64,000 bases of DNA from positions 1 through 64,000 of the forward strand of contig JAUCBJ010008087.1 in NCBI GenBank assembly GCA_032718475.1, read 5' to 3'. Shown piece after piece: positions 15,031-64,000 of this stretch; position 1 is the stretch's first letter, and every line of letters starts with the position of its first letter. This stretch comes from Nemertoderma westbladi. Taxonomy: Eukaryota > Animalia > Xenacoelomorpha. Under the pieces are notes generated by a model, which saw nothing but the letters and a program-made list of their open reading frames with translations, did not search any database and was not told where the DNA came from. Position numbers and translations under genes: made by a program.

Positions 15031-16377
15031 GTTTGGTTTGTATTTTGTTTGAGTATTCTGTACGGGTAGCGTAATATTTATTATTCAGAGTTTATGCGAT
15101 TATTCGCAACATTCATGTCCCCAAGTTTATTCCTACAGTAATTGTGTTTGTTACACATACCGTTATAGTTAAATTAACCCCGGTACTACACGGGCTGCTT
15201 GGCGTAGGTAAAGACTGGTGACTTTGTGCTCCAGTCACTCCAGCAGATGCCGTGGTTCTTTTAACTGTTCAAGTATATTTAACTACTGATTATTTGTTGT
15301 ACCAGTACTTGTACCTAATTTAGGGTTTAGTGTACAGTGCTTTCCGAAAGTAATTAGTGTGTAGGCAGTATATTTGTGTTGTAAAGTGGTTAATAGGCAT
15401 GTTGGATCTGGTAGTCCGCGGTAATTAACTTCCAGGTAGGAACACTCCGTTATACATAACGTAGTACCTATAGCGATACGGCTATAGGTCGTCAGACGGT
15501 GGTATTTTTCCTATCTGGACAGTGCAATATATTTACTACTACTTATTATTTTCAAATACCGTAGTACCCTGTCCGTCGTAATAACCAGAAATCTAACCCT
15601 TTGTTAGACTGGTTTGTAGACTTCCTGTAAAATTACCCTAAAAATTTCGTACGTAATATTTTGTTGTGTTTAATTAGAGATTTAATCTCACCCGTATCTT
15701 AGGTAATTTGTAGTATTAAGTAACTTAGGTAAATTAGAATTATCTGTTTTAGTGTCCAATAAATAGCACTTCACTGAGAGCGCACAGCTTCTGTGTAGTG
15801 ACTCCCCCTAGAAATAATAACATTTATTTCAAATATTGACAAAACCCATTTTAAACGGGTATATATATATTATAAATCAACTCAAACGATTTATAAATAG
15901 TAGGCCTACCATACAACAATTAGGTCTCAATATCAGTTGGACTACTGCTTAAATAACGGTAATAAAGTAAGTTAAGGTAACTAAGTAACCTTTAAATTCA
16001 GAAATTCAATTATTTAAATAATTGATATACCGGTATTCACGATAGGCCTATTAACTTTATTTCTATAAATTTAGGCTGAAATTATACCGGTATTCTGTAA
16101 TTAATTCTAGTTCATAATTATACTTATATATACTATAAGTGTAAGCTGTATACCGGTATTCACGATAGGCCTATTATATATTTATATATTTGTGCTAAAA
16201 TTATATACCGGTACTCTGTGACAAACCTAGTTTACAATACTTATATATACTATAAGTGTATACCGGTATTCTAATATACTGTAATAAATTACCGGTACTA
16301 GGCCAACGGTCATACTGAATTACTAGACTTGCTTTAACTGTAACTATAGCAGTAAGCATTCAACTGTATAGCTAAAC

Positions 16378-23073: not shown

Positions 23074-23114
23074 GACTCCTGCAATGCTATGAAGATTCCG
23101 ATAAGTATTTCCTG

Positions 23115-24494
23115 TTGTTGAGAAATCCGCAGATGCGCTTACGGGATCGCTTCTCTAGCACAATGATAGATGGGTTAATACGTGTTGGAGGAAGGCTCAC
23201 CAATGCGCCATTATCCTTTGACACTAAATTCCCCATACTCATTAGAAATCTTGAAGTACAAATCAAGATGATTGTAGATGTTCACAGCAAACTTTATCAT
23301 GCTGGTAGAGAACGAGTTCTTAGCGAAATCCGAACTCGCTATTATTTTTATAAACCCCGTAGAGCTCTGAACCAAGTTCTTAGGAACTGCATACCCTGTA
23401 GGAAAGCATTCAGTAGGCCTTTAACACAGCGAGAGGCAGAATTACCTAGGGAACGAGTAAGCTTCTATGAACCACCTTTTACTAATACTGGTGTAGATTT
23501 ATTTGGCCCTATTGAAGTATATCGTGCTAGGACTATAGTCAAGAGATGGTGTGTCATCTTCGTATGCATGACTTGTAGAGCCATCCATCTCGATATGGTG
23601 AACGATCTATCTACCAACAGCTTCGTATTAAGTTTACGCCGACAGATCGCTCGCTTCGGGACGAGTAATACCATGAGATCGGATAAGGGAACGAACTTCA
23701 TTGGTGCCAACAACGAAATACAGGCTTACGTGAAGGACTGGAACCAAAGACAGGTGGACGATCAGCTAAGGATAACAGCGTCTAGCTGGACCTTCAACGC
23801 CGCCGACGCCCCTTGGTGGGGAGCAAGTTGGGAGATATTAATTAGAAGTGTTAAGACCGCATTTCACTTTATAGTGCCATGCCGCGCGTATCTCACCGAC
23901 GAACTTTTGCGGACGTTAATGGAGGAAATAGCTGCCTATCTTAACGAGAGACCGCTTATGCCAGTCTCATCGAGTCCCGATTCCCTGGAAGCGCTAACAC
24001 CCGCGCACTTCCTACTGAAGAAACCTGTAGCCATGCTCCCACGATCGGAGATTGCCGACGGAGACGAATACTGCCGTCGAACTTGGCAACTTATGCAGTT
24101 GCTATCCCGTCGTTTCGCTGACCATTTCGAGAAACATTATCTGCCCACGCTACAACTTCGAACTAAGTGGTTTGCACAGCAAGAAAACGTCAGCGCCGGA
24201 GATATGGTGCTTATTGTAGATCCAGACCTCCCACGTAAACGGTGGCAGACAGGTCGTATCATCGGGACTCACATCTCAAATGATGGTTTAGTACGCTCGG
24301 TAGAACTCGTCGTCATGCGGCGTAACTTCAAGAAGCCAGGCATAATCTTTGAGACGCAACAACTCAACCGCCCAGTTGGTCGTTTATGTTTACTGGAAAG
24401 AGACAGAGAACTCTCCGGAAACTATGGAAGGCAAGACACTCTTCCCACGACCACCTCCCTAATTCCTCAAACATCTAGGGACTCCCCAACGTGA
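23115..24494 (+). CDS. BEL/Pao integrase, frameshifted relative to the upstream polyprotein
   Basis: GLIRVGGRL, HHCC finger, GVDLFGP, SDKGTNF, WGASWE, LTPAHFL. The frame is open back to about 23040 and overlaps the end of the upstream ORF. The listed start is TTG, not a real ATG. Confidence 0.94.
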   Translation: MLRNPQMRLRDRFSSTMIDGLIRVGGRLTNAPLSFDTKFPILIRNLEVQIKMIVDVHSKLYHAGRERVLSEIRTRYYFYKPRRALNQVLRNCIPCRKAFSRPLTQREAELPRERVSFYEPPFTNTGVDLFGPIEVYRARTIVKRWCVIFVCMTCRAIHLDMVNDLSTNSFVLSLRRQIARFGTSNTMRSDKGTNFIGANNEIQAYVKDWNQRQVDDQLRITASSWTFNAADAPWWGASWEILIRSVKTAFHFIVPCRAYLTDELLRTLMEEIAAYLNERPLMPVSSSPDSLEALTPAHFLLKKPVAMLPRSEIADGDEYCRRTWQLMQLLSRRFADHFEKHYLPTLQLRTKWFAQQENVSAGDMVLIVDPDLPRKRWQTGRIIGTHISNDGLVRSVELVVMRRNFKKPGIIFETQQLNRPVGRLCLLERDRELSGNYGRQDTLPTTTSLIPQTSRDSPT

Positions 24495-35415: not shown

Positions 35416-36045
35416 GGTAACTGCAAAGTGAAATATAACGGCAGAAAATCTGGTATTCTTAACATGGGCCTTGTACTATATATTCAGTGCAAATATGCTG
35501 TATAATATAAAAGGAATTTTAGTAAAAAAAATCCTTACCGGTAGATACAGCAAGGACACGAGGCGTTAAAGTCTATACAAATCAATCCAGGTTTCAGCCA
35601 ATCACAAAGGAGATGACGTAGGGCCTATTACAAATGAATGTGGATTGATTTGTATAGACTTTAATGACCACCCATGTTCTGTTAGAATCTATACATTTCA
35701 ATTATTTTCATTTAAATACTGCTTTCCCACTACTATTTCCCATAATAGTACTAAAGTAAGTAAGATGGTCTCCAGTGTATAATTGTTTGTTGTGTGAAGG
35801 TCAGCACACCAGTCTGCCAGTACACACAGTAGGCAGGAGAGGATTGGAATACTGATCGCATATATATGGCAGGGTACTGTGTGTATGTAGTTACTGTAGG
35901 AGCTGTATTGAGAGCAATATTATTTAATATTAAGAGTGAGGGTCCATGACCTACACTATATACAGTAGTACTGTAGGTCATGGAAGAACTCTACAGTAGG
36001 TATCCCAACCAGTATACTGTTACTGTTAGGCCTTAGCGCCTAGCC

Positions 36046-38487
36046 ATGTCTAATATTCAATGCAAATATTGTTCTACTGGTCAAAGTTATAAATCTACGA
36101 ACTCACTTGGGTGTCATATTAGGCGATTCCATAAAAACTATATTCCTCGCAGTGATAACGGCAAAATAACTTTCTCATTATCATCAGAACAAGAATTTGA
36201 TTTATGGAAAGAAAATTTTGAAGATAAAACCATTTCAAAATTTATTAAGCGATCTGATGGCGCAACGATGAGGAAGGATGGTTCCAGTGTAACGCATTAC
36301 ATATGTAATAGAATTGGCAACTACAGTACCAAAGGGTGTGGGCAAAGAATCTTAAAATATAAGGGGTCATATAAAGCGGCTGTGAAATCATGCTCAGCAT
36401 TCATCAAAGCTGTAAAGTTGCCAAATGGGAATTTTGAAGTTGAGGCTGTAGGAACGCATGATTCACATGATGTTTCAGTTCACCAACTGCCATTATCGAA
36501 TAGAGATAAAGGTCAATGTGCGGAGTTACTTCAAATTGGAATACCAAAGGAACGTGTGTTGCATGATATTCGTAGAACCGCAAAACTTGACAGCAGAATA
36601 ATGTTTGTTAATCCACAGGATTTGAGAAATATATGCAAGAAAAACGGCATTAATTGTGATGAAAGGCGCCATGAAAACGATGCTATGTCGGTAGACATAC
36701 GTGTTGAGGAGCTGCAATCATTAGACGAAAATCCTATTTTACTATATAAACCACAAGGGTTAAACACTACTGTGAAACTTATGGATAGTCAATTATCTGA
36801 TGACGATTTCGCTTTAATTATACAGACAAAATATCAATCTGACTGCTTTAAATTGTTTTCCAAACATTTCGTATGTGTTGACTCCACTCATAAAACATCC
36901 GGCTATCAATTCCCACTAACAACCTTATTGGTATTGGTTGCGGACAGCTGGGGTGAAGGAATGCCTGTTGCGTGGTTGATCTCTAATAGAGAGGACTTCA
37001 CCATGATTCGGCTCTTCTTTAGATTGCTATATGAACAGAGTCCAGAGGTTACTACGGCGGCGCTAATGAGTGATGACGCAGAACAGTACTATAAGTCTTG
37101 GGTTGACGCATTTCCACAACTCGAACAACCACGTAAACTACTCTGTAAGTGGCATGTTAAGAGAGCATGGACTGAGAACATAGCTAAGCTACCGCTGGAA
37201 GATAGATCAGAAGTAATGAAGATATTACACATGCTATGTGATGAACTAGACGAAGCACTGTTCAATGAATCAATGAATAACTTCTTAGAATATCTTACTG
37301 CCAACGAACAGCGTCATGCATTTCGAGACTACTTTTGTAATTTCTATGCTAATCGAACCGAGACTTGGGCGAGTTGCCACCGTACCAATCTACAAATAAA
37401 TACGAATACGTATGTTGAATCATTTCACAAAGTAATTAAGTATAAATACCTCAAGGCGACTAATAACAAGCGCTTGGATATACTTATTGATAAGCTTTTG
37501 CTCTTTGTTCAAGATAAGAATGTAGAACATCAAATCAGAGATATTGAAGGGAAATATTCTAAAGCCCAGAAGGAAAACGTTGCGCGGCATCGCCGGGCCT
37601 TGGCTCAACTGGATATCTTCTCTATTGAAGCTGCAAATGAGTTTATATGGTCTGTGACAAGCGGAACAAATAAGTACACTGATACATGCAATGCAAAAGT
37701 GAACTGTTGCAAACAGATTTGTCCAATATGTAACATCTGTTGTCACCGTTACAAGTGTTCTTGTAAGGATGCTGTTTTCACGAAAAGGCGCATTTGTAAA
37801 CATATCCACGCAGTCTGCATTCAGTATCATGCTGGTAGAACAACATCTGTTTCGCAGGAAGATATTGGGGCTGTTTCGCAGGAAGATATCCCGTCTGTTT
37901 CGCAGGAAGATATTCCGTCCATTTCGCAGGAAGATATCCCGTCTGTTTCGCAGGGAGATATCCCGTCTGTCCATCATACTGTCCTTCCGTCAGTTCATGA
38001 TGCTGATATCGAACAACTATCCGAAACTGATTTATGCGAACCACAACTGGTTTCGGATTTTTGGGATTCTGGAATCCCTAAACAGTTCTGGGAGGCTACC
38101 TCCGCCATGTCTACGTCTAAGGAGGTAGGGTACCCCCTGCCTTGTCTGAACAAACTGAATTCTTTATTGCACAACCCGAAAATTACGCACAGCAATAAAT
38201 TAATGGCTCACAATGCCATTGACAACATTATAAAATCCTTAACACATCGATTACCACTACTCACAAAGTCGCCTAATAATAAACGAATTATCACCCAAAA
38301 CCGCCGAATTTCCTCAATCCGATGGCAATTGTACACAACGCGAAAAAAACAAATTAGAAAAAAGAAGAAATACCTAAGACCGACTAACATGGAACAAAAT
38401 AGTATGTCTGCATATCTCAATCGATTGCAGCCGGTTGTAATTGGACCGGGCCGCGATCATGATTACGCATTAACTAACTGTATCTGA
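36046..38487 (+). CDS. MULE transposase (813 aa) with C2H2 finger, WRKY/FAR1-like domain, DDE core and SWIM finger
   Basis: CKYC...HIRRFH, CVDSTH, MSDD, CKWH, ESFH, CSC...ICKH. Also 8-aa (24-bp) VSQEDIPS repeats at about 37845-37970. Confidence 0.95.
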   Translation: MSNIQCKYCSTGQSYKSTNSLGCHIRRFHKNYIPRSDNGKITFSLSSEQEFDLWKENFEDKTISKFIKRSDGATMRKDGSSVTHYICNRIGNYSTKGCGQRILKYKGSYKAAVKSCSAFIKAVKLPNGNFEVEAVGTHDSHDVSVHQLPLSNRDKGQCAELLQIGIPKERVLHDIRRTAKLDSRIMFVNPQDLRNICKKNGINCDERRHENDAMSVDIRVEELQSLDENPILLYKPQGLNTTVKLMDSQLSDDDFALIIQTKYQSDCFKLFSKHFVCVDSTHKTSGYQFPLTTLLVLVADSWGEGMPVAWLISNREDFTMIRLFFRLLYEQSPEVTTAALMSDDAEQYYKSWVDAFPQLEQPRKLLCKWHVKRAWTENIAKLPLEDRSEVMKILHMLCDELDEALFNESMNNFLEYLTANEQRHAFRDYFCNFYANRTETWASCHRTNLQINTNTYVESFHKVIKYKYLKATNNKRLDILIDKLLLFVQDKNVEHQIRDIEGKYSKAQKENVARHRRALAQLDIFSIEAANEFIWSVTSGTNKYTDTCNAKVNCCKQICPICNICCHRYKCSCKDAVFTKRRICKHIHAVCIQYHAGRTTSVSQEDIGAVSQEDIPSVSQEDIPSISQEDIPSVSQGDIPSVHHTVLPSVHDADIEQLSETDLCEPQLVSDFWDSGIPKQFWEATSAMSTSKEVGYPLPCLNKLNSLLHNPKITHSNKLMAHNAIDNIIKSLTHRLPLLTKSPNNKRIITQNRRISSIRWQLYTTRKKQIRKKKKYLRPTNMEQNSMSAYLNRLQPVVIGPGRDHDYALTNCI

Positions 38488-43719: not shown

Positions 43720-44217
43720 ACCTGGATTGATTTGTATAGACTTTAACGCCTCGTCAGCAAGGACCAAATTGTGTAAATAAACTATTAAGCTTTAAAAAGA
43801 ATAAAACTGTACCTATACGTCCCAGTGATCGGTAGGTTTCGGCCCGCAGCTGAAGGCGTTCTCAAGAGGCCAAGCCAGCAAATGTGTTGCGTACTGTAAA
43901 TACTTCACTGACTCCTGCTACTACAAAGAAACTCTGTTCCCACAAAAATCTGTTCTTCCAGCCAATTAAAAATTGTATAAACTTACGATTCAATATGAAT
44001 GTATTTCTCTCTTCATAATTCTATATCGATTAAGTTCAAATATTCATACGGATACTGCGAAAAGTTATAGTACCCTACTCACAAGGACTGGACTACTACA
44101 TACAGTAAATAAAATACAGTAATGATAATAACCTTGTTTTACAGCCTACATCAATAACAGTACAGTTGTAGTTTCGGTGGTAAATCAATACAAGGTTGTG
44201 TGTTTTAAGTTTTGAGA

Positions 44218-45024
44218 ATGGGTAACACGGCTAGTATAGAAGAATACAAGTGGCAAATAGCCGGTTATTGCGTCGGCGCCGACTTCGCGATTCAATGGAT
44301 CGGTTGGTTGATCGCCAGCGCCTTAGGAACCGAACGATTCTACGACATTACCGGGTCTATTACCTTCGTAACTCTAGCCTGGGCGAGTATAATCCATGAT
44401 CTATCGCCCTCTAAGGTGGTCCAGGCCAGTCTCATAACAGCCTGGGCTTCCCGCCTAGGATTGCATCTGATCACCCGCATCATAAAGGACAAGAAAGACA
44501 GACGATTCGACGGCGTTCGCGACAACCCACGCAAATTCTTCATCTACTGGACTATCCAAGGCGTCTGGATTGCCATTACTTTAGCTCCCACCTTGATTAT
44601 GAACGTGAAGTCGAGTCACACTGATTGGATGAGTGCTCCCGCAGTGTGTGTGCGCGGAGTGGGCTGGTTGGTGTGGCTCGTTGGTTTCTCTCTCGAGGCC
44701 GTCGCCGACGCCCAGAAGAGATCGTTTCGCTCGGACCCCGCCAACGCGGGTGCCTTTATCTCCACCGGTCTCTGGTCCATCTCCCAGCATCCCAACTACC
44801 TCGGTGAGATCGTTCTCTGGTTCGGTCTCTACATCTCGTCTGCGGCACACTTCCGTACCTGGGAGTTCCTTTCGGTTTTATCTCCGATATTCGTCGCCTA
44901 CCTTCTCATTAACGTCTCCGGGATTCCCCTATTAGATAAAGCCGCTAAGGCCCATTGGGGTGACAACCCAGCGTATAAACGCTATTGCAAGGGAACTAAA
45001 AAGTTGGTCCCATTTATATGGTAG
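44218..45024 (+). CDS. DUF1295 / steroid 5-alpha-reductase-like membrane protein (268 aa), single coding exon
   Basis: ERFYDITGS, RLGLHL..RI...KDRRFD, EAVADAQK, TGLWSISQHPNYLGEI, SGIPLL and LVPFIW, with multiple TM segments. ATG at 44218. Confidence 0.93.
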   Translation: MGNTASIEEYKWQIAGYCVGADFAIQWIGWLIASALGTERFYDITGSITFVTLAWASIIHDLSPSKVVQASLITAWASRLGLHLITRIIKDKKDRRFDGVRDNPRKFFIYWTIQGVWIAITLAPTLIMNVKSSHTDWMSAPAVCVRGVGWLVWLVGFSLEAVADAQKRSFRSDPANAGAFISTGLWSISQHPNYLGEIVLWFGLYISSAAHFRTWEFLSVLSPIFVAYLLINVSGIPLLDKAAKAHWGDNPAYKRYCKGTKKLVPFIW

Positions 45025-47900: not shown

Positions 47901-48323
47901 AGATAGATAGATAGATTTATTTATACATTATGTAAAAACAATAACAAATACACCAAACAATGTACCGGTATAAAGGTATTGTCCAACATAACATATAGGA
48001 TTACCCCTAAAGCTTTGCAGCTTATTTCCAAGGGGGTCCTTTATGTTACTTGGTTACAAATACAATATTACACTACGCTAACCTAAAACCAATATAAAAC
48101 GTAATTACACTATGTACATGTACAACTTTACCGAGAGCGTGACAATGCCCGACTCAACGATAAAGATGTAATGTACAGAACAATTTATTATAAAACGTAA
48201 TTACAGTATAAATAGTAAATAATTAATAAACTAATAACTTACTGTAGGACTATTGTACCTATTTTTACATTGCACACGGAGGTGAGATTTAACTGCAGAT
48301 TTAAAAGGAGGGAGTTTGTCTAC
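47901..48323 (-). mobile_element. 5'-truncated L2/Crack-like LINE 3' end
   Basis: Minus strand encodes FKSAVKSHL (ORF2 C-terminus-like), followed by a 3' stem-loop GGACCCCCTTGGAAATAAGC...GGGGTAATCC and a (TCTA)n tail. Confidence 0.7.
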
Positions 48324-49177
48324 AAATCTTATGAGGTTGCATGAAATAGAAAATAGATATGCACCATGAACCGTAATATAGTGTCATTTTCTGATGACAT
48401 GGACCTCCCCCAGATTTTTCTACAAATCTTAAAATTTGAAACACAACTACTGTAATTCCACTCACCTGTTATCCCATGAAGACGGAATTTTCGATTTTGC
48501 CTTTTATTTTTTTTAATTAGTTGAGAAACAGCTGAGATATAGGCGTTCAAAGATTGCAAGAAGTATCGTTCGCTGGAGGCCATTTATTCTATTTAATAAA
48601 TACACAATGTTCTGGAACATTTTGTTTAAGTATGAATAGCTACGCAATAGATATATACCATGTTCTGGAATATAGTGTCGTTATTCAGGTACCTGCCCCC
48701 CCCCAAAAAAATTTTTTTTTCTACAAATCGTAATGAGATTGCATGACATTTGAAACAGAGTCAGTTTCACCTCCCTCCTCGTTGCTGGGTGAGCCAGAAT
48801 TTTTATTTTCGCTTTCATTCTTTAGCTACTGTACAAGCGTTTGAAAAAGTTGGAAAAGGTGTTTCCGGCGATATTTCACAGGCCACAGTGCAATCATTCT
48901 TCAACCTTGCGAAGATGCAAACCATGCGACTTTCTAACACTCCTACTAGTCGAGTCAATCTAGCAAAAAAACCATAAGTATTTCGCAATCAATCCGAACC
49001 ACACATTTTGGATTCTATATTACCTTATTAATGACCAAAAAAAGTCTACAAAATTTTATTTTGCGGATCATATGTTTATTCATGGAAATTCTGCGTAAAT
49101 TTGCATAAAATAAGCCAAACAAAAGGAATAGTAGGGAACAGTAAGTAGCAAATTGGTGATGTTCCAGAATAATTTAA

Positions 49178-49418
49178 AGGTGTAATATTATGGTTTTGTT
49201 CAGAAATGGAATAAATGAGAAAGCGCGTCACTGGGGGTTGAACCAGTGCTATACGTACGTTTCAGCCTATCAGGCTTCATCAGTAGCGCTAACCAGTTCA
49301 GCCACTTGCCCCTGACATTCACTCTCCCACCTAATAATCCACTATTCATTTCTGAACAAAACCATAATATTACACCTTTAATTACAGTTGCATCAACAGC
49401 TCAACTCCAATTCATTTA
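49178..49418 (-). mobile_element. Short insertion carrying a tRNA-like Pol III promoter plus hammerhead, with a 35-bp inverted repeat and 12-bp flanking direct repeat
   Basis: A box 49293-49304, B box 49234-49244. Inverted repeat 49174-49208 and 49347-49381. AGAATAATTTAA at 49166-49177 and 49419-49430. Confidence 0.75.
49245..49290 (-). ncRNA. Type I minimal hammerhead ribozyme
   Basis: Minus strand AGCGCUA-CUGAUGA-AGCCU(GAU)AGGCU-GAAAC-GUAC-GUA-UAGCACU. Full core, stem I 6/7 bp, stem II 5 bp, palindromic stem III ACGUACGU, GUA cleavage site. Confidence 0.92.
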
Positions 49419-50569
49419 AGAATAATTTAATTAATTTCACAATAAGCTGTGATTCAATGAGAAATTAGTAATATTTACACTGGCGTGTTACACATTAATT
49501 GCTATATCTCGGAAACTAGAAGTCGCATCAAATTGTTAAATATTTCAAAAACTTCACGATATAATAAGGTAACCGTTGTATAAAAATTATACAATTCCAC
49601 TGCAAGGAAATTTCATATTTTCCATTAATGTTAGTGAAGATTTTTCACATAATTAAATTGTGATTGCTCTATTGATTTTAGGTGTAATTTATTTATTTGT
49701 TTTAGTTTAGAAACCACAATAGTTTATCATATAACAAATAAATATTTTGGGGATAAGGGTTTTTGAGGTCGATAAATCCGATGGGCGAGGATACATCAAC
49801 CCGTTTAGTAGAGAAGTTGTGTATAATAGTTGTGTAATCTTGTACCAGTAAAATTGGTATTAAAAATATGGTTAAATTATTAGACAAATTTCCGTTGCTC
49901 TGGAAACTAAATTGGTAACTATATAGAAGTGCATACTTCTGTCAATCGATAGTCATTAGAGTAAAGTTTGACTGTACCAAATTTCGAGAAAATCCCAACA
50001 ATCCAATAGACCTCTTGTTGCTATGTAAAATCCGTGTTGCTAAGGAAAGAAACAGGAAATTGAAGGTGATCCGCATAATATATTTTGATAGACTTTTTTG
50101 GGGGTATTAACAAGGTAATGTAGAATAAAAAAAGTTAGTTTGGATGAATTGCGAATTTGTTATGGGTTGACCCCCTTTTTCGGCTAGATTGACTCGTCTA
50201 AACTGTATCTCAGCTATTTGTCAACAACTGCACTACCAGTAACTGCAGTAACATGACTACCTCAGTACCTGAATACTTGATTACCGGTACCGTTACTGCG
50301 TTATATCAGTATGTAGGCCTACCGCTGTGGCGCTGTACCGTATGCCGTATTTCTGTATTTTGTTAGCCAGTACAGCAGTACCGGTAGCGCGGTAGGTTAC
50401 CGGTACATGTTAGCAGTTGTATCTATTTCGGTTCTAGTCTAATTCAACAGTTCAAAGCTGCAAGGTCTTTTTGTCAGGTGCCAGCTTGCTGCTCTGCTGC
50501 TCTGTCAACCTGCATGCTGGCATGGCAACGTCAGAACGTTGAACGTCTAACGGTCGATTGGATGATGCG

Positions 50570-50793
50570 ATGCAACCTGATCAAAATCAACAGCAAGGAT
50601 ACCTGATTCCTGTAGTTTGTGCTCCTCACGACCTGAAATTTTACCTGGACAACTTGAGTAGCCACAAACAGTTATTAACTATATATAATCCATGCGAATT
50701 TGTTCTTCATTACAAACTGCTTTCTAATGCGCGCGATAAATACATAGTCTCAGAACCAGAAGGAAAAATTAAACCTTATAAATGTATTGATAT
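50570..50793 (+). CDS. MOSPD1: Motile sperm domain-containing protein 1-like, coding exon 1
   Basis: IPVVCAPHDLKFY...SHKQLLTIYNP.EF...KY.V..EG.IKP..CID matches the MOSPD1 MSP domain. Donor GTAAGT at 50794 (phase 2). Confidence 0.9.
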
Positions 50794-50981
50794 GTAAGTG
50801 CAGAACATGATATAATTCCTGGGGTGTTTAGTACAATTACAATTAATTGCATGCATTCATTCGCCTTACAGCCTTACCACTTGCACTTAACCGTTCAGCC
50901 GTTGTACAATTTTTATTGATTTCACTCACCAACAGACTAAGGAGGAGGGAGGTGCGTGTCCCTGGATTACGACACTATCTA

Positions 50982-52206
50982 CACAATGGCTCAGAATATA
51001 CTTTCGTTATTAATGTACCTGCCCCACCCCCACCCAAAAAAAATTTCTACAAATCTTAAATGAGATGGCATGAAATTTGAATTTGAAACAAAGATAGTTC
51101 CATCTCCCTCCTCCTTAGTAGGTGAGCCAGAGTCAGAATTTTTATTTTTGCTTCATTCTTTAGCTGCAAGCGTTTAAAAATGGTGTCTCCGAGCTCCGAC
51201 GAAATTGCATCAGTTACACCCCTTGGCTGCTTGGTTACCGTTACACCGCAGATATTCTTCAAACCTGTAGTGAGTTGTTGGTAGTAGTGGAAAGCTGACC
51301 GTGCAAGGACTGCAAATATGTAAAAATATTTGAATTTGGTTGGTAAATACTGAAATAGCGGAGATATGGGCATTCGAATTTTGCATGTATTCAGGTATTA
51401 GCTTCCACTGCAGGCCATTTATTCCATTTAATAAATACACAATGTTCTAGAACGTTTTGTTTATCTCATAAGTAGCTTGGCAACAATGCAAAGCCTACAT
51501 AATAATACTAGTAAATTCATACATCAATACATAATCAAAAATGTTCTCGAACATTGTGTATTAATTAAATAGAATAAATGGCCTACCGGTACAGCGGAAA
51601 CAAATACATGCAACTTTCGAATGCCCATATCTCAGCTATTTCCCTACCAAATTCGAATATTTTAACATAATATTTGGAATGGGCGGGGTAGCTCAGTTGG
51701 TTGAGCGCCGGGCCTGCAATCTATTGGTTGTAGGTTCAGCCCCGCCAGGGTCCACTCAGCCTTTCATCCACTGGGGTCGATAAAATGAGTACCAGTTAAA
51801 TAACTGGGAGCAAATCTTGGGATAGGAGTAGCGCCCACCCCTACCCTCGGGTAGCCGAAAGAGGAGCCTTCGGGTCGCCTCCGGCTTCGGCCGACTATTT
51901 GCTTTTACTTGATTTGGAATGGAATCCTTGCACGGTCAGCTTTCCACTAGTACCAACAAATCACTACAGGTTTGAAGAGTAACTGCGGTGTAACTGATGC
52001 AATTTCGTCGGAGACACCTTTAAATGCTTGTAGCAAAAGAATGAAAACAAAAATAAAAATTCTGGCTCACCCACTAGGGAGGAGGGAGATGAAAGTATCT
52101 CTGTCTCAAATTTCATGCAATCTCATTAAGATTTGTAGAAAAATTTTTTGGGGGGAGGGGGAGGTACCTGAATAACGAAACGACACTATTTTTCCAGGAC
52201 ATGGTG
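50982..52206. mobile_element. Foldback MITE (TA-flanked, CACCATGTCCTGGAA-type ends, arms of about 500 bp) in intron 1; family fragments also at about 3860-3985, 45920-46010 and 48325-48850
   Basis: 50982-51480 is the degenerate reverse complement of 51540-52206 once the SINE is removed. Confidence 0.8.
51681..51911 (+). mobile_element. tRNA-derived SINE with a Ceph/Nin-like central domain
   Basis: A box TAGCTCAGTTGG, B box GGTTCAGCCCC, core ACTCAGCCTTTCATCC...GGGGTCGATAAAATGAGTACC, and TSD ATTTGGAATGG (51672-51682 and 51912-51922). Confidence 0.88.
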
Positions 52207-52644
52207 TATATTCAGATATTCCAGGACATGGTGCAATCGTGTACCGGTCAGCCGGTAGGCGGTAGCCTGTGTTGGACTTGGTTCCCTCAACTCAGATCTG
52301 TAACCTATATTTTATTGTCTAAACTGCGTGCAGTACGGTACAAATTCAATTGGTGTTACATGTTATCACGCTAAATGCTAACTCACCCTGAAATAAGGTC
52401 AAAATATCCCAACGATATCAGATATTATTAATGTATTGTTCGATTTGAAGAAAAGGTCGGAATGGTTGATAGCTTAGTTTTTGTAATTCACTAAAATGAT
52501 TGCATTAATGTATGTGGTTTAGTCATTGCATTATTATTGCTGATAACTTTGCGCTGTAGTAAATTTTAATGTTATTTGTATTTTTTATTGACCTATCAAA
52601 ATATTCGTTCAGTCATTGCATCCTGTGTCTATTATTGCTTTCAG

Positions 52645-53084: not shown

Positions 53085-53187
53085 CCGATGTCGAACAAGT
53101 TGGACGGCAGAAATACCCAGATATCTCAGGGATTGCTGTATAGCAGACGAGATGGAAGTGAAAGCGGCCCTCCAACCTTACAGTACG
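53085..53187 (+). CDS. MOSPD1: MOSPD1-like, probable coding exon 3 (linker)
   Basis: Acceptor ttattttAG, open phase-0 frame PMSNKLDGRNTQISQGLLYSRRDGSESGPPTLQY, donor GTACGT at 53188. Confidence 0.65.
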
Positions 53188-56100
53188 GTACGTCCAACCT
53201 TACAGTACGATAGGTCCAACCTTACAGTACGATAGATCCAACCTTACAGTACGATAGATCCAACCTTACAGTACGATATGTCCAATCTTACAGTACGGTA
53301 CGTCCAACCTTACAGTATGATAGGTCCAACCTTACAGTACGATAGATCCAACCTTACAGTTACAGTACGATAGATCCAACCTTACAGTACGATAGATCCA
53401 ACCTTACAGTACGATAGATCCAACCTTACAGTACGATAGGTCCAACCTTACAGTGCGATAGATCCAACCTTACAGTACAGTACGATAGATCCAACCTTAC
53501 AGTGCGATAGATCCAACCTTACAGTACGATAGATCCAACCTTACAGTACGGTATGTCCAACCTTACAGTACGATAGATCCAACCTTACAGTGCGATAGAT
53601 CCAACCTTACAGTTACAGTACGATAGATCCAACCTTACAGTACGATAGATCCAACCTTACAGTACAGTACGATAGATCCAACCTTACAGTACGATAGATC
53701 CAACCTTACAGTACAGTACGATAGATCCAACCTTACAGTTACAGTACGATAGATCCAACCTTACTGTACGATAGATCCAACATTACAGTACGATAGATCC
53801 AACCTTACAGTTACAGCGCGATAGATCCAACCTTACAGTTACAGTACGATAGATCCAACCTTACAGTTACAGTACGATAGATCCAACCTTACAGTACGAT
53901 AGATCCAACCTTACAGTGCGATAGATCTAACCTTACAGTACGATAGATCCAACCTTACAGTACAGTACGATAGATCCAACCTTACAGTACGATAGATCCA
54001 ACCTTACAGTACAGTACGATAGATCCAACCTTACAGTACAGTACGATAGATCCAACCTTACAGTACGATAGATCCAACCTTACAGTACAGTACGATAGAT
54101 CCAACCTTACAGTTACAGTACGATAGATCCAACCTTACAGTACGATAGATCCAACATTACAGTACGATAGATCCAACCTTACAGTTACAGCGCGATAGAT
54201 CCAACCTTACAGTTACAGTACGATAGATCCAACCTTACAGTTACAGTATGATAGATCCAACCTTACAGTACGATAGATCCAACCTTACAGTGCGATAGAT
54301 CTAACCTTACAGTACGATAGATCCAACCTTACCGTTACAGTACGACAGATCCAACCTTACAGTTACAGTACGATAGATCCAACCTTACAGTACGATAGGT
54401 CCAACCTTACAGTACGATAGATCCAATCTTACAGTACGATAGATCCAACCTTACAGTACGATAGGTCCAACCTTACAGTTACAGTACGATAGATCCAACC
54501 TTACAGTACGATAGATCCAACCTTACAGTACGATAGATCCAACCTTACAGTACGATAGATCCAACCTTACAGTGCGATAGATCCAACCTTTCAGTTACAG
54601 TACGATAGATCCAACCTTACAGTTACAGTACGATAGATCCAACGTTACAGTATGATAGATCCAACCTTACAGTGCGATAGATCCAACCTTACAGTACGAT
54701 AGATCCAACCTTACAGTACGATAGATCCAACCTTACAGTACGATAGATCCAACCTTACAGTACGATAGATCCAACCTTACAGTACGATAGATCCAACCTT
54801 ACAGTGCGATAGATCCAACCTTTCAGTTACAGTACGATAGATCCAACCTTACAGTTACAGTACGATAGATCCAACCTTACAGTACGATAGATCCAACCTT
54901 ACAGTACGATAGATCCAACCTTACAGTACAGTACGATAGATCCAACCTTACAGTATGATAGATCCAACCTTACAGTACGATAGATCCAACCTTACAGTAC
55001 GATAGATCCAACCTTACAGTATGATAGGTCCAACCTTACAGTACGATAGGTCCAACCTTACAGTACGATAGATCCAACCTTACAGTACAGTACGATAGAT
55101 CCAACCTTACAGTGCGATAGATCCATCCTTACAGTACGATAGATCCAACCTTTCAGTACGATAGATCCAACCTTACAGTGCGATAGATCCAACCTTACAG
55201 TTACAGTACGATAGATCCAACCTTACAGTTACAGTACGATAGATCCAACCTTACAGTACGATAGATCCAACCTTACAGTACGATAGATCCAACCTTACAG
55301 TACGATAGGTCCAACCTTACAGTACGATAGATCCAACCTTACAGTACTATAGATCCAACCTTACAGTACGATAGATCCAACCTTACAGTGCGATAGATCC
55401 AACCTTACAGTACAGTACGATGGATCCAACCTTACAGTACGATAGGTCCAACCTTATAGTACGATAGATCCAACCTTACAGTACAGTACGATAGGTCCAA
55501 CCTTACAGTACGGTACGATAGATCCAACCTTACAGTACGATAGATCCAACCTTACAGTGCGATAGATCCAACCTTACAGTACGATAGATCCAACCTTACA
55601 GTACGATAGATCCAACCTTACAGTACGATAGATCCAACCTTACAGTACGATAGATCCAACCTTACAGTACGATAGATCCAACCGTACAGTACGATAGATC
55701 CAACCTTACAGTTACAGTACAATAGATCCAACCTTACAGTACAGTACGATAGATCCAACCTTACAGTACAGTACGATAGGTCCAACCTTCCAGTACAGTA
55801 CGATAGATCCAACCTTACAGTTTGATAGATCCAACCTTACAGTACGATAGATCCAACCTTACAGTACGATAGATCCAACCTTACAGTACGATAGATCCAA
55901 CCTTACAGTACGATAGATCCAACCTTACAGTTACAGTACGATAGATCCAACCTTACAGTTACAGTACGATAGATCCAACCTTACAGTGCGATAGATCCAA
56001 CCTTACAGTGCGATAGATCCAACCTTACAGTGCGATAGATCCAACCTTACAGTACGATAGATCCAATCTTACAGTACAGCATGATAGATCCAACCTTACA

Positions 56101-59100
56101 GTACAGTACGATAGATCCAACCTTCCAGTACAGTACGATAGATCCAACCTTACAGTACAGCACGATAGATCCAACCTTACAGTACAGTACGATAGATCCA
56201 ACCTTCCAGTACAGTACGATAGATCCAACCTTACAGTGCGATAGATCCAACCTTACAGTACGATAGATCCAACCTTACAGCTCGATAGATCCAACCTTAC
56301 AGTTACAGTATGATAGATCCAACCTTACAGTTACAGTATGATAGATCCAACCTTACAGTTGCAGTACGATAGATCCAACCTTACAGTACGATAGATCCAA
56401 CCTTACAGTGCGATAGATCCAACCTTACAGTACGATCGGTCCAACCTTACAGTACGATAGGTCCAATCTTACAGTACAATAGATCCAACCTTACAGTACG
56501 ATAGATCCAACCTTACAGTGCCATAGATCCAACCTTACAGTACGGTACGTCCAACCTTACAGTATGATGGATCCAACCTTACAGTGCGATAGATCCAACC
56601 TTACAGTACGATCGGTCCAACCTTACAGTATGATGGATCCAACCTTACAGTGCGATAGATCCAACCTTACAGTACGATAGATCCAACCTTACAGCTCGAT
56701 AGATCCAACCTTACAGTTACAGTATGATAGATCCAACCTTACAGTTACAGTATGATAGATCCAACCTTACAGTTGCAGTACGATAGATCCAACCTTACAG
56801 TACGATAGATCCAACCTTACAGTGCGATAGATCCAACCTTACAGTGCCATAGATCCAACCTTACAGTACGGTACGTCCAACCTTACAGTATGATGGATCC
56901 AACCTTACAGTGCGATAGATCCAACCTTACAGTACGATCGGTCCAACCTTACAGTATGATAGATCCAACCTTACAGTACGATATGTCCAACCTTACAGTA
57001 CGATAGATCCAACCTTACAGTACGATCGGTCCAACCTTACAGTATGATGGATCCAACCTTACAGTGCGATAGATCCAACCTTACAGTACGATAGATCCAA
57101 CCTTACAGTACAATAGATCCAACCTTACAGTACGATAGATCCAACCTTACAGTACGATAGATCCAACCTTACAGTACAGTACGATAGATCCAACCTTACA
57201 GTGCGATAGGTCCAACCTTACAGTATGATAGGTCCAATCTTACAGTACGATAGATCCAACCTTACAGTACGATAGATCCAACCTTACAGTACGGTACGTC
57301 CAACCTTACAGTACGGTACATCCAACCTTACAGTACGATAGATCCAACCTTACAGTACGATAGTTCCAACCTTACAGTACGATAGATCCAACCTTACAGT
57401 GCGATAGATCCAACCTTACAGTACGATATGTCCAACCTTACAGTACGATAGATCCAACCTTACAGTATGATAGATCCAACCTTACAGTACAGTACGATAG
57501 ATCCAACCTTACAGTGCGATAGATCCAACCTTACAGTGCGATAGATCCAACCTTACAGTGCGATAGATCCAACCTTACAGTACAGCACGATAGATCCAAC
57601 CTTACAGTACAGTACAATAGATCCAACCTTCCAGTACAGTACGATAGATCCAACCTTACAGTACAGTACGATAGATCCAACCTTCCAGTACAGTACGATA
57701 GATCCAACCTTACAGTACGATAGATCCAACCTTACAGTACAGTACGATAGATCCAACCTTCCAGTACAGTACGATAGATCCAACCTTACAGTGCGATAGA
57801 TCCAACCTTACAGTACGATAGATCCAACCTTACAGTACGATAGATCCAACCTTACAGTTACAGTACGATAGATCCAACCTTACAGTTACAGTACGATAGA
57901 TCCAACCTTACAGTTGCAGTACGATAGATCCAACCTTCCTTACAGTGCGATAGATCCAACCTTACAGTACGATAGATCCAACCTTCCAGTACAGTACGAT
58001 AGATCCAACCTTACAGTACAGTACGATAGATCCAACCTTCCAGTACAGTACGATAGATCCAACCTTCCAGTACAGTACGATAGATCCAACCTTACAGTGC
58101 AATAGGCCCAACCTTACAGTGCGATAGATCCAACCTTACAGTACGATAGATCCAACCTTGCAGTACGATAGATCCAACCTTACAGTACGATAGATCCAAC
58201 CTTACAGTACAGTACGATAGATCCAACCTTACAGTACAGTACGATAGATCCAACCTTACGTTCAGTACGATAGATCCAACCTTCCAGTACAGTACGATAG
58301 ATCCAACCTTACAGTGCGATAGATCCAACCTTACAGTACGATAGATCCAACCTTACAGTACGATAGATCCAACCTTACAGTACGATAGATCCAACCTTAC
58401 AGTACGATAGATCCAACCTTACAGTACGATAGATCCAACCTTACAGTACAGTCGATAGATCCAACCTTACAGTACGATAGATCCAACCTTACAGTGCGAT
58501 AGATCCAACCTTACAGTACGATAGATCCAACCTTACAGTACGATAGATCCAACCTTACAGTACGATAGATCCAACCTTACAGTACAGCACGATAGATCCA
58601 ACCTTACAGTACAGTACGATAGATCCAACCTTCCAGTACAGTACGATAGATCCAACCTTACAGTGCGATAGATCCAACCTTACAGTACGATAGATCCAAC
58701 CTTACAGTACGATAGATCCAACCTTACAGTCAGTACGATAGATCCAACCTTACAGTTACAGTACGATAGATCCAACCTTACAGTTGCAGTACGATAGATC
58801 CAACCTTACAGTGCGATAGATCCAACCTTACAGTACAGCACGATAGATCCAACCTTACAGTACAGTACGATAGATCCAACCTTCCAGTACAGTACGATAG
58901 ATCCAACCTTACAGTGCGATAGATCCAACCTTACAGTACGATAGATCCAACCTTACAGTACGATAGATCCAACCTTACAGTACGATAGATCCAACCTTAC
59001 AGTACGTCGATAGATCCAACCTTACAGTACAGTACGATAGATCCAACCTTACAGTTGCAGTACGATAGATCCAACCTTCCAGTACAGTACGATAGATCCA

Positions 59101-62100
59101 ACCTTACAGTGCGATAGATCCAACCTTACAGTACGATAGATCCAACCTTACAGTACGATAGATCCAACCTTACAGTACGATAGATCCAACCTTACAGTAC
59201 AGCACGATAGATCCAACCTTACAGTACAGTACGATAGATCCAACCTTCCAGTACAGTGCGATAGATCCAACCTTACAGTACGATAGATCCAACCTTACAG
59301 TGCGATAGATCCAACCTTACAGTACGATAGATCCAACCTTACAGTACGATAGATCCAACCTTACAGTACGATAGATCCAACCTTACAGTACAGCACGATA
59401 GATCCAACCTTACAGTACAGTACGATAGATCCAACCTTCCAGTACAGTACGATAGATCCAACCTTACAGTGCGATAGATCCAACCTTACAGTACGATAGA
59501 TCCAACCTTACAGTATGATAGATCCAACCTTACAGTACGATAGATCCAACCTTACAGTTACAGTACGATAGATCCAACCTTACAGTTACAGTACGATAGA
59601 TCCAACCTTACAGTTGCAGTACGATAGATCCAACCTTACAGTGCGATAGATCCAACCTTACAGTTACAGTACGATAGATCCAACCTTACAGTACAGTACG
59701 ATAGATCCAACCTTACAGTGCGATAGATCCAACCTTACAGTTACAGTACGATAGATCCAACCTTACAGTTACAGTATGATAGATCCAACCTTACAGTTAC
59801 AGTACGATAGATCCAACCTTACAGTTACAGTACGATAGATCCAACCTTACAGTACGATAGATCCAACCTTACAGTGCGATAGATCCAACCTTACAGTACG
59901 ATCGGTCCAACCTTACAGTACGATAGGTCCAATCTTACAGTACGATATATCCAACCTTACAGTATGATAGATCCAACCTTACAGTGCGATAGATCCAACC
60001 TTACAGTACGGTACATCCAACCTTACAGTACGATAGATCCAACCTTACAGTACGATATGTCCAACCTTACAGTACGATAGATCCAACCTTACAGTACGAT
60101 CGGTCCAACCTTACAGTACGATGGATCCAACCTTACAGTGCGATAGATCCAACCTTACAGTACGATAGATCCAACCTTACAGTACGATAGATCCAACCTT
60201 ACAGTACGATAGATCCAACCTTACAGTACGATAGATCCAACCTTACAGTACAGTACGATAGATCCAACCTTACAGTGCGATAGGTCCAACCTTACAGTAC
60301 GATAGGTCCAATCTTAAAGTACGATAGATCCAACCTTACAGTACGATAGATCCAACCTTACAGTACGGTACGTCCAACCTTCCAGTACGGTACATCCAAC
60401 CTTACAGTACGATAGATCCAACCTTACAGTACGATAGGTCCAACCTTACAGTACGATAGATCCAACCTTACAGTGCGATAGATCCAACCTTACAGTACGA
60501 TATGTCCAACCTTACAGTATGATAGATCCAACCTTACAGTACGATAGATCCAACCTTACAGTACAGTACGATAGATCCAACCTTACAGTGCGATAGATCC
60601 AACCTTACAGTGCGATAGATCCAACCTTACAGTGCGATAGATCCAACCTTACAGTACGATATGTCCAACCTTACAGTACGATAGGTCCAATCTTACAGTA
60701 CGATAGATCCAATCTTACAGTACAATAGATCCAACCTTACAGTACGATAGATCCAACCTTACAGTACGATAGATCCAACCTTACAGTACGATAGATCCAA
60801 CCTTACAGTACGATAGATCCAACCTTACAGTGCGATAGATCCAACCTTACAGTACGATAGATCCAACCTTACAGTACAATAGGTCCAACCTTACAGTACG
60901 ATAGATTCAACCTTACAGTGCAATAGATTCAACCTTACAGTACGATATGTTCAACCTTACAGTACAGTACGATAGATCCAACCTTACAGTGCGATAGATC
61001 CAACCTTACAGTGCGATAGATCCAACCTTACAGTGCGATAGATCCAACCTTACAGTACAATGGATCCAACCTTACAGTGCGATAGATCCAACCTTACAGT
61101 ACGATAGATCCAACCTTACAGTACAATAGATCCAACCTTACAGTACGATAGATCCAACCTTACAGTACGATAGATCCAACCTTACAGTACGATAGATCCA
61201 ACCTTACAGTACGATAGATCCAACCTTACAGTACAGTACGATAGATCCAACCTTACAGTGCGATAGGTCCAACCTTACAGTACGATAGGTCCAATCTTAC
61301 AGTACGATAGATCCAACCTTACAGTACGATAGATCCAACCTTACAGTACGGTACGTCCAACCTTCCAGTACGGTACATCCAACGTTACAGTACGATAGAT
61401 CCAACCTTACAGTACGATAGGTCCAACCTTACAGTACGATAGATCCAACCTTACAGTGCGATAGATCCAACCTTACAGTACGATATGTCCAACCTTACAG
61501 TACGATAGATCCAACCTTACAGTACGATAGATCCAACCTTACAGTACAGTACGATAGATCCAACCTTACAGTGCGATAGATCCAACCTTACAGTGCGATA
61601 GATCCAACCTTACAGTGCGATAGATCCAACCTTACAGTACGATATGTCCAACCTTACAGTACGATAGGTCCAATCTTACAGTACGATAGATCCAATCTTA
61701 CAGTACAATAGATCCAACCTTACAGTACGATAGATCCAACCTTACAGTACGATAGATCCAACCTTACAGTACGATAGATCCAACCTTACAGTACGATAGA
61801 TCCAACCTTACAGTACGGTACATCCAACCTTACAGTACGGTACATCCAACCTTACAGTACGATAGATCCAACCTTACAGTACAATAGGTCCAACCTTACA
61901 GTACGATAGATTCAACCTTACAGTGCAATAGATTCAACCTTACAGTACGATATGTTCAACCTTACAGTACGATATATCCAACCTTACAGTACAATAGATC
62001 CAACCTTACAGTACAGTACGATAGATCCAACCTTACAGTGCGATAGATCCAACCTTACAGTGCGATAGATCCAACCTTACAGTGCGATAGATCCAACCTT

Positions 62101-64000
62101 ACAGTATGATATGTCCAACCTTACAGTACGATAGATCCAACCTTACAGTGCGATAGATCCAACCTTACAGTACGATCGGTCCAATCTTACAGTACGATAG
62201 ATCCAACCTTACAGTATGATAGGTCCAACCTTACAGTGCAATAGGCCCAACCTTACAGTACGATAGATCCAACCTTACAGTACGATAGATCCAACCTTAC
62301 AGTACGATAGAGCCAACCTTACAGTACAATAGGTCCAATCTTACAGTACGATAGATCCAATCTTACAGTACAATAGATCCAACCTTACAGTACGATAGAT
62401 CCAACTTTACAGTACGATAGATCCAACCTTACAGTATGATAGATCCAACCTTACAGTATGGTACATCCAACCTTACAGTACGATAGATCCAACCTTACAG
62501 TACGATAGGTCCAATCTTACAGTACGATAGGTCCAACCTTACAGTACAGTACGATAGATCTAACCTTACAGTACGGTACGTCCAACCTTACAGTACGATA
62601 GGTCCAACCTTACAGTACAGTACGATAGATCCAACCTTACAGTACGATAGATCCAACCTTACAGTACGATAGATCCAACCTTACAGTACGATAGATCCAA
62701 CCTTACAGTACGGTACATCCAACCTTACAGTATGGTACATCCAATCTTACAGTACGATAGATCCAACCTTACAGTACGATAGATCCAACCTTACAGTACG
62801 ATATGTCCAACCTTACAGTACGATAGATCCAACCTTACAGTACGATAGATCCAACCTTACAGTACAGTATGATAGATCCAACCTTACAGTGCGATAGATC
62901 CAACCTTACAGTGCGATAGATCCAACCTTACAGTGCGATAGATCCAACCTTACAGTACAATATGTCCAACCTTACAGTACGATAGATCCAACCTTACAGT
63001 GCGATAGATCCAACCTTACAGTACGATATATCCAACCTTACAGTACGATAGATCCAACCTTACAGTACAGTACGATAGATCCAACCTTACAGTGCGATAG
63101 ATCCAACCTTACAGTGCGATAGATCCAACCTTACAGTGCGATAGATCCAACCTTACAGTATGATATGTCCAACCTTACAGTACGATAGATCCAACCTTAC
63201 AGTGCGATAGATCCAACCTTACAGTACGATCGGTCCAATCTTACAGTACGATAGATCCAACCTTACAGTATGATAGGTCCAACCTTACAGTGCAATAGAC
63301 CCAACCTTACAGTACGATAGATCCAACCTTACAGTACGATAGATCCAACCTTACAGTACGATAGATCCAACCTTACAGTACAATAGGTCCAATCTTACAG
63401 TACGATAGATCCAATCTTACAGTACAATAGATCCAACCTTACAGTACGATAGATCCAACTTTACAGTACGATAGATCCAACCTTACAGTACGATAGATCC
63501 AACCTTACAGTATGGTACATCCAACCTTACAGTACGATAGATCCAACCTTACAGTACGATAGGTCCAATCTTACAGTACGATAGGTCCAACCTTACAGTA
63601 CAGTACGATAGATCTAACCTTACAGTACGGTACGTCCAACCTTACAGTACGATAGGTCCAACCTTACAGTACAGTACGATAGATCCAACCTTACAGTACG
63701 ATAGATCCAACCTTACAGTACGATAGATCCAACCTTACAGTACGATAGATCCAACCTTACAGTACGGTACATCCAACCTTACAGTATGGTACATCCAATC
63801 TTACAGTACGATAGATCCAACTTTACAGTACGATAGATCCAACCTTACAGTACGATATGTCCAACCTTACAGTACGATAGATCCAACCTTACAGTACGAT
63901 AGATCCAACCTTACAGTACAGTATGATAGATCCAACCTTACAGTGCGATAGATCCAACCTTACAGTGCGATAGATCCAACCTTACAGTGCGATAGATCCA
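53172..64000. repeat. 22-bp satellite (CCAACCTTACAGTACGATAGAT)n with 27/28-bp variants, >10.8 kb, running off the window end
   Basis: Directly visible tandem array with higher-order duplicated blocks. Confidence 0.98.

Follow-up and report, generated by a model that had tools for sequence, protein, structure and literature searches.

The SINE-like Sm-alpha and Sj-alpha elements of Schistosoma are high-copy, non-coding repeats in which a tRNA-type Pol III promoter is combined with a canonical type I hammerhead ribozyme with a weak helix III; as reviewed, Sm-alpha consists of the promoter and then the hammerhead, is often tandem, and has a tRNA-Gln head called by tRNAscan (PMC6765202, PMC2770079; published systems are described throughout from the available sections of the cited papers). 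In Penelope-like elements (PLEs), the terminal repeats (pLTRs) of Poseidon_Ac and Adineta Pen2a have a hammerhead approximately 70–115 nt before their 3′ ends, an optional tail, a head-to-head inverted truncated copy, an AT-rich duplicated target, and copies that extend across the cut (PMC11167929, PMC3846280, PMC8557442, PMC4209133). PLE insertions are described with an inverted 5′-truncated copy and an optional tail of 30–40 bp (PMC8557442), and one example has a 9-bp target-site duplication and a 31-bp tail (PMC3846280). The minimal PLE hammerhead has a long helix II, an extra base after A9, and no helix III (PMC4209133). Animal retrozymes of the non-LTR type are non-autonomous, with a canonical type I hammerhead, a palindromic helix III, a link to PLEs, and large target duplications (PMC7229834, bioRxiv 10.64898/2026.07.22.740005); although linked to PLEs, they are tandem (PMC7229834, PMC7761336, bioRxiv 10.64898/2026.07.22.740005). 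Helenus (TRIMp3) has a tRNA-derived promoter within the terminal repeat of a non-autonomous retroelement (PMC10886601). The function of the hammerheads of PLEs and SINEs has been called unknown (PMC8557442), and Poseidon transposes in vitro without cleavage (PMC11167929).

Here, we examined a 64,000-nt stretch of the genome of Nemertoderma westbladi (contig JAUCBJ010008087.1, positions 1–64,000; hereafter, the window). Within it is one member, slightly decayed, of a non-coding, multi-copy retroposon family; its hammerhead is positioned between an exact A box and an exact B box (Table 1). The element resembles Sm-alpha and Sj-alpha in its high copy number, non-coding nature, tRNA-type promoter boxes, and canonical type I hammerhead with a weak helix III but differs from Sm-alpha in that the ribozyme lies between the two boxes, no tRNA is called, its dispersed copies are uncut, and it has ends of the PLE type. 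It likewise shares the listed features of the pLTRs, whereas no RT/GIY-YIG frame was seen, its hammerhead is canonical, and the ribozyme is surrounded by exact A and B boxes and a T6 run. The features given for animal retrozymes also recur here; however, retrozymes are defined by tandem units and circular RNA, whereas no tandem arrangement occurred among the joints listed for this family, and its 5′ end is near the A box. Helenus is similar in the position of its promoter but differs in its LTR machinery, 4–5-bp target duplications, primer-binding site, and purine tract, and has no ribozyme (PMC10886601). Pol III boxes in a pLTR are unreported in the available sections of PMC11167929, PMC3846280, PMC8557442, and PMC4209133, and the terms “Pol III” and “SINE” are absent from PMC7229834. 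A hammerhead enclosed by A and B boxes, which a sequence-only reading of this DNA had set apart from the described families, was not found in the literature searched, and the element may have an earlier entry in a repeat database (Repbase, Dfam, or SINEBase) under another name. We conclude that this is a PLE-type hammerhead retroposon with the ribozyme inside, not behind, a likely tRNA-type promoter; in other words, a new layout of parts that also occur in other repeats with ribozymes.

Table 1. Features of the hammerhead retroposon and of related loci. Positions are those of the window unless a metagenome locus (L) is named.
Feature	Position	Strand	Remarks
Whole insertion, 241 bp	49178–49418	both	Minus-strand main copy and, head to head with it, an inverted 3′ fragment
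Left target-site duplication, 12 bp, AT-rich	49166–49177	plus	Identical to 49419–49430
Right target-site duplication, 12 bp	49419–49430	plus	Identical to 49166–49177
Main copy	49178–49346	minus	5′-extended relative to most copies; short, tail-less 3′ end
Upstream extension	49314–49346	minus	In a minority of copies; approximately 4–10% of plateau depth beyond 49318
Inverted 5′-truncated copy of the 3′ end	49347–49418	plus	Perfect 35-nt inverted repeat (49174–49208/49347–49381)
Optional tail, 41–44 nt	49375–49418	plus	Two 3′ end classes
Host foldback (MITE-like) repeat	48947–50200	both	Element inserted inside; inverted arms 48947–49070/50067–50200
Common family 5′ end, inferred	49311–49315	minus	Best fit 49313; from depth ramp and unitig simulations
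A box	49293–49304	minus	Exact; position 49297 is A or G in the family, either permitted
D-arm-like hairpin	49288–49302	minus	4 bp including one G-U; pair probability approximately 0.44 in the 104-nt unit; closure by chance, approximately 0.08
Hammerhead, type I	49248–49287	minus	Core, helices I, II, and III, and NUH site all present
Stem I	49287–84/49251–48	minus	4 bp in this copy
Core CUGAUGA	49283–77	minus	Read from the letters
Stem II	49276–72/49268–64	minus	5 bp
GAAA	49263–60	minus	Read from the letters
Helix III, palindromic, 8 nt	49253–49260	minus	Predicted dimer interface (cofold)
Predicted cleavage site after GUA	between 49252 and 49251	minus	From alignment to RF00163
B box	49234–49244	minus	Exact; 48 nt after the A box; sole strict B box in the window
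T-arm-like hairpin	49230–49247	minus	Loop of 8 nt; majority letters give two G-U pairs
T6 run, Pol III terminator-like	49210–49215	minus	Family majority; interrupted at 49212 in this copy
Fungal-looking element	L018:3001; L020:2213–2347; L023:1–125; L024; L027; L029:2167–2254; L030		Metagenome loci

The motifs named in the sequence-only reading, whose letters for 49312–49225 were as given, were all found in place on the minus strand, and the hammerhead it had recognized proved to be real. On a 93-nt stretch, Rfam Hammerhead_1 (RF00163) aligned over the full model with 21.8 bits and an E-value of 0.0017, although the score of this decayed copy was below the gathering score of 34; Rfam gave no hammerhead at gathering across the 64-kb window and none at E ≤10 on a 351-nt stretch. 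A type I descriptor found one hammerhead in the 64-kb window and none in 300 dinucleotide shuffles, which were made from bases 1–53170 and also served for the test of the A and B boxes. Helix III consists of 2 bp and a palindromic tetraloop within an 8-nt palindrome. As regards the loop 1–loop 2 tertiary contacts of the canonical metazoan hammerhead, loop 2 agrees with the Rfam consensus AUAGG, and an internal loop can be closed by a distal helix. Helix I is 4 bp in this copy and 7 bp (49290–49245) with the majority G at 49247. With majority letters, the unit agrees with the canonical metazoan hammerhead (helix I of approximately 6 bp, helix II of 4 bp, and helix III of 1–2 bp with a palindromic loop), whereas a helix II of 4–5 bp, no extra base, and the presence of helix III depart from the minimal PLE form. 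The canonical metazoan type is thus the better match for the ribozyme, not the minimal PLE type named in the sequence-only reading. As a monomer, helices I and III had pair probabilities of ≤0.07. The core cofolded as a dimer at −31.6 kcal/mol versus 2 × −10.4 kcal/mol for the monomers, with stems I and II in cis and the palindrome forming an 8-bp helix III in trans, as expected from the palindromic helix III already noted from the letters; when longer units were cofolded, the trans helix III was retained, and the short stem I of this copy was lost.

The A and B boxes were searched with strict patterns that we take to be their consensus. Strict A and B boxes 25–60 nt apart occurred once in the window, in this unit, and once in all 300 shuffles; the chance of the B box was 3.3e-6 per base, or approximately 1e-4 within 30 nt. 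With majority letters, the T6 run lies 18 nt downstream of the B box, and the local chance of a T6 within 40 nt was 0.085. The enclosure of the hammerhead by the two boxes was confirmed, and the boxes are kept across the family. Furthermore, the arrangement of the start, A box, B box, and T6 fits the geometry of a Pol III gene, and the boxes probably serve as an internal Pol III promoter of the tRNA type. The stretches of the two boxes are close to reverse complements of each other and able to pair as a distal helix I, so the boxes are not independent pieces of evidence. As in tRNA-derived SINEs, the boxes have type 2 spacing near the 5′ end, which is itself inferred by simulation. As a rule, tRNA-derived SINEs have no Pol III terminator ahead of their 3′ end; the majority T6 departs from this. 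Position 49212 was A on the plus strand in 153,692/155,054 of the depth in run X1, 90,284/91,279 in X3, and 3,420/4,783 in X4, and the T6 was approximately 99% fixed in X1–X3. It sits approximately 30 nt upstream of the first 3′ end, and the depth across it did not drop after the duplicated arm was added back, indicating that family copies run through it. With the T6 ahead of the 3′ end, efficient Pol III termination would strip the part required for copying.

The unit is part of a larger, 241-bp insertion that the sequence-only reading had missed; the insertion includes an inverted fragment and a tail and is flanked by a target duplication. Its bounds follow from an empty-site joint (49165 to 49419, with 12 letters in common) that matches the identical flanking 12-mers and was found in at least five contigs of X1, at least one of X2, and at least one of X3. 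The host foldback repeat itself showed multi-copy depth and empty sites. Among the contigs listed, loose ends with unrelated flanks occurred at 49181 in 23–29 contigs per run (X1–X3) and at 49418 in 33 (X1) and 25 (X2) contigs, placing the 3′ ends 71–74 and approximately 115 nt past the predicted cut, and opposite-strand joints were present in at least two further contigs. The head-to-head inverted 5′-truncated copy and the duplication of a target in AT-rich DNA are those of PLE-mobilized insertions, as is the optional tail, although its 41–44 nt is slightly above the quoted range of 30–40 bp. By analogy, the element was likely spread by Penelope-type retrotransposon machinery. No autonomous PLE RT/GIY-YIG frame adjoined this copy.

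Several other repeats were observed in the window. Related foldback (MITE-like) repeats with long inverted arms are nested one inside another at 48300–52250, and one foldback repeat contains a tRNA-derived SINE (51682–51910, plus strand; RF00005, 21.5 bits, E = 0.028) with a GC-rich hairpin tail and a conserved-looking middle that we take to be Deu/Nin-like. At 6063–6009 (minus strand), 34 nt separate the A box and the loose B box of another tRNA-like head, which has no Rfam tRNA match. The window also contains a BEL/Pao-type LTR retrotransposon (16372–24494, plus strand; frames of 2233 and 484 codons; PF05380, PF03564, PF18701, and PF17921), an 816-codon frame with weak MULE transposase-like matches (36037–38487, plus strand), a broken non-LTR retrotransposon remnant (41–1829, minus strand) with RVT_1 at 41–541 and an adjoining frame upstream, and an intronless 271-codon DUF1295/steroid-reductase-like frame (44209–45024, plus strand; PF06966, E = 8e-56). 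Satellite arrays occupy 53171–64000, 8226–11992, and 4126–4966, with units of 22, 19, and 15 bp in 465, 192, and 56 copies, respectively.

The family was characterized from assembled public DNA contigs of four runs (X1–X4), representing three samples from three studies; X1 and X2 are from one sample, and X1 may have the same source as the window. The stretch was present in four of the five public DNA runs listed, with 3435 (X1), 2080 (X2), 1821 (X3), and 164 (X4) contigs placed on 48950–49600. No family copy was found in viral contigs, in prokaryote genomes, or at any of the 16 metagenome loci that a broader pattern retrieved. The summed depth over 49192–49301 in X1–X3 was 0.8–4.3 × 10^5, versus approximately 4–55 for the listed single long contigs (X1 and X3). 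A figure of approximately 10^4 copies based on the raw depth was dropped when simulation showed that summed contig depth overcounts copies 9- to 29-fold. Because 400 simulated copies reproduced the contig number and plateau of X1 (approximately 1000 placed contigs and a plateau of approximately 195,000, versus 912 and approximately 260,000 observed), we estimate the family at roughly 400–500 copies, with X3 pointing to fewer. Both this number and the 5′ end come from simulations that approximate the contig-placement tool. From a plateau at 49290, the depth fell to 10% (X1) and 5% (X3) by 49318–49321. A fixed end at 49313 gave the best fit to this ramp (rms 0.04–0.05, in all three seeds), whereas clustered mismatches (rms 0.32–0.40) and random truncation (0.15–0.48) fitted more poorly. 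Most copies therefore likely begin near 49313, approximately 9 nt ahead of the A box, at the likely transcription start; this end coincides with the base of the long hairpin. Loose ends at 49316–49317 occurred in at most 14 contigs per run, and their consensus was still similar to the upstream extension. Those at 49335 (36 contigs in X1 and 26 in X3) had a shared upstream sequence, and some copies continue approximately 25 nt or more beyond this point. There was no excess of depth 3′ of the cut site (0.85–1.06 observed versus 1.0–1.4 if half of the copies started there), and most copies span the predicted cut site uncut.

This copy departs from the family majority at four places: 49247, 49232, 49276, and 49212. 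The majority G at 49247 and 49232 accounted for approximately 98–99% of the depth in X1–X3 and 87–91% in X4. At 49276, the majority G is G10.1, which is conserved in hammerheads (PMC4209133), and C11.1 was present in 46–83% of the depth. The majority letters thus strengthen the ribozyme (7-bp stem I and G10.1), weaken the T-stem, and complete the T6. In the table of variable places, which covers approximately 49255–49300 and changes of ≥1%, all seven places listed were tolerant ones (N7, loop 2, loop 3 twice, 10.1, 11.1, and A-box R15). X4 included contigs with changes in stem I (49250) and stem II (49267) and with an 8-nt loss at the cut site. One X4 contig over 49182–49311 (depth 1108) represents a divergent subfamily in which stem I is changed and the 5′ side of the core has a 4-nt insertion, which the placement tool put behind 49281.

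We consider it reasonably probable that the tRNA-type boxes set the start of transcription, that PLE proteins copy the uncut read-through RNA from two internal sites, and that the hammerhead cuts only as a dimer. TFIIIC would bind the boxes as DNA and fix the start near 49313, and most transcripts would end at the T6 as an RNA of approximately 104 nt, whereas read-through transcripts would acquire the AC-rich 3′ stretch. The PLE reverse transcriptase would then start internally at one of two sites in this stretch (tail-less or tailed), and reverse transcription of the uncut RNA to its 5′ end would produce copies of approximately 135 or 177 nt in which both boxes are retained. Longer RNAs begun upstream would be the source of a minority of copies, this one among them, so a longer PLE-type terminal repeat probably contains the unit. 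As a monomer, the hammerhead would be inactive; it would cut only when two RNAs pair via the palindromic helix III, and the cut would leave the A box apart from both the B box and the 3′ end. In anole Poseidon, reverse transcription starts 85–92 nt past the cut in an AC-rich loop at AT-rich targets, the uncut RNA is the main template, and the tail lies between two start sites (PMC11167929); the distances from the cut to the 3′ ends here (71–74 and approximately 115 nt) resemble these by analogy. Cleavage would carry a clear cost, as it would separate the promoter boxes of the element itself.

The near fixation of the T6 ahead of the 3′ ends keeps alive another explanation, namely that the unit is the Pol II-read terminal repeat (pLTR) of an ordinary protein-coding PLE and that the boxes are left over from a tRNA or result from an extended helix I with a GGU loop. 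The short copies would then arise from internal reverse transcription starts in the first repeat that run to the RNA 5′ end, which would explain, with no need for read-through, why the T6 and the 5′ end are fixed and why a minority is extended upstream. Internal initiation in a pLTR-ORF template has been shown for Poseidon (PMC11167929), promoters are present in pLTRs (PMC6765202, PMC3846280), and the near complementarity of the box stretches is likewise in its favor. However, it is at odds with an exact A box 9 nt downstream of the start, an exact B box 48 nt farther on (the chance of which within 30 nt is that given above), and a T6 another 18 nt later, and no long reading frame begins at the hammerhead, the ATG inside its core opening 26 codons only. 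We regard this explanation as possible, though on balance unlikely. The 35-nt perfect inverted repeat, which opens with TTAA, had at first suggested that a DNA transposon (MITE) specific for TTAA and bounded by terminal inverted repeats of 35 bp had captured a hammerhead, an identity that was dropped on the empty-site joint. This joint largely refutes it, the insertion extends 37 nt beyond the right arm, and the flanks are a 12-bp duplication, not TTAA; the symmetric form is particular to this locus, since most copies do not have 49318–49346, and the MITE explanation is hardly credible. An origin of the unit as a stray monomer from a tandem non-LTR retrozyme, spread via circular RNA produced by two hammerhead cuts, would be consistent with its canonical ribozyme architecture, which is typical of retrozymes (PMC7229834), and with the link of retrozymes, which are often monomeric, to PLE repeats (bioRxiv 10.64898/2026.07.22.740005). 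Yet the window contains a single hammerhead, the copies start approximately 60 nt ahead of the cut, and no head-to-tail unit junction was present among the joints listed, making this origin very improbable.

The sequence-only reading had proposed a tRNA/ribozyme chimera that possibly switches between tRNA and ribozyme folds; as an explanation of the unit, this would be a free-standing chimera with the function of alternating between a cloverleaf-like fold and the active hammerhead. The minimum-energy fold of the 104-nt unit (49313 to the T6) is indeed a cloverleaf-like four-way junction with a D arm, a T arm, and an outer helix; the D arm, the 4-bp stem I, and the T arm are compatible in one fold (−14.1 kcal/mol); CUGAUGA begins 4 nt past the D stem, near the expected place of the anticodon loop; and the two commonest outer-helix variants (49220 and 49225) preserve pairing. 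However, the stability of this fold was at the level of the shuffles (z = 0.03). The outer, acceptor-like helix is off register and at chance level (equalled by 438/2000 shuffles and 795/5000 random 16-mers), with three of seven acceptor pairs at the canonical place. The ACTGG/CCAGT T-stem pairs perfectly in this copy, as had been described, but only because of two minority letters (49247 and 49232); its loop has 8 nt instead of 7, and the majority has two G-U pairs, its letters lengthening stem I at the expense of pairs in the T and D stems. When the 3′ end was included, the D-arm probability fell to 0.01 and the cloverleaf-like fold was lost. ARAGORN called no tRNA for the unit and Rfam RF00005 did not match it, unlike the head of the neighboring SINE, so its tRNA likeness did not extend to the cloverleaf, acceptor stem, and anticodon arm of a tRNA gene. 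Because the cloverleaf-like fold is no better than chance, the switch is unsupported, and we consider it quite improbable; as the boxes work as DNA, a tRNA fold would be unnecessary.

A metagenome scan for a hammerhead with a B box gave 16 loci. Seven of these (four sequence types with fungal-looking flanks; Table 1) belong to an unrelated dispersed element of approximately 125 nt with a type III-like hammerhead, for which Rfam gave hammerhead E-values of 0.0015 and 0.024 in two of the four cases tested. All four types have a B-box/T-arm-like hairpin 17–24 nt past the hammerhead (the T-arm was identified by eye), and in four near-identical copies the flanks diverge approximately 13 nt past the B box. 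No clear A box was found in this element, and the search pattern itself required the B box. At two other loci (L017:1623–1711 and L028:1679–1767), ARAGORN called an 89-nt Ile(GAT) tRNA that has a long variable arm and a serine-type body and is presumably allo-tRNA-like; it bears both hammerhead boxes because its anticodon loop is CUGAUGA and its variable loop contains GAAA. A loose pattern also gave 16 viral loci, nearly all of which were attributable to chance: 14 of the 16 had at most one stem II pair, one had two at best, and L009 had five. The last, on a phage contig (L009:270–370, minus strand), is a plausible hammerhead with a 5-bp stem II and with stems I and III identified by eye; its stem I overlaps a chance B-box-like motif.

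Returning to the retroposon of the window, the unit might be a complete Pol III gene (A box, B box, and T6) that surrounds a dimer-dependent hammerhead and thereby acts as a density-sensing self-destruct of the repeat, a role that we propose tentatively and think doubtful. Scarce RNA would remain uncut and be copied with both boxes, whereas abundant RNAs of approximately 104 nt would pair via the palindrome with read-through or parent-PLE RNAs and cut the latter between A and B, so that any copy made from cut RNA would be promoterless. If the boxes are inactive, the element is an ordinary PLE-derived repeat. Otherwise, it would be a candidate for a Pol III SINE that depends on the machinery of a PLE, not of a LINE, as well as a natural tRNA scaffold in which a catalytic RNA replaces the anticodon region. 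In the unit of approximately 135 nt, the concentration dependence and trans action of cutting are directly testable. If density sensing is true and the fungal-looking family (L018–L030) is counted, a ribozyme inside a Pol III unit would be a recurring design.
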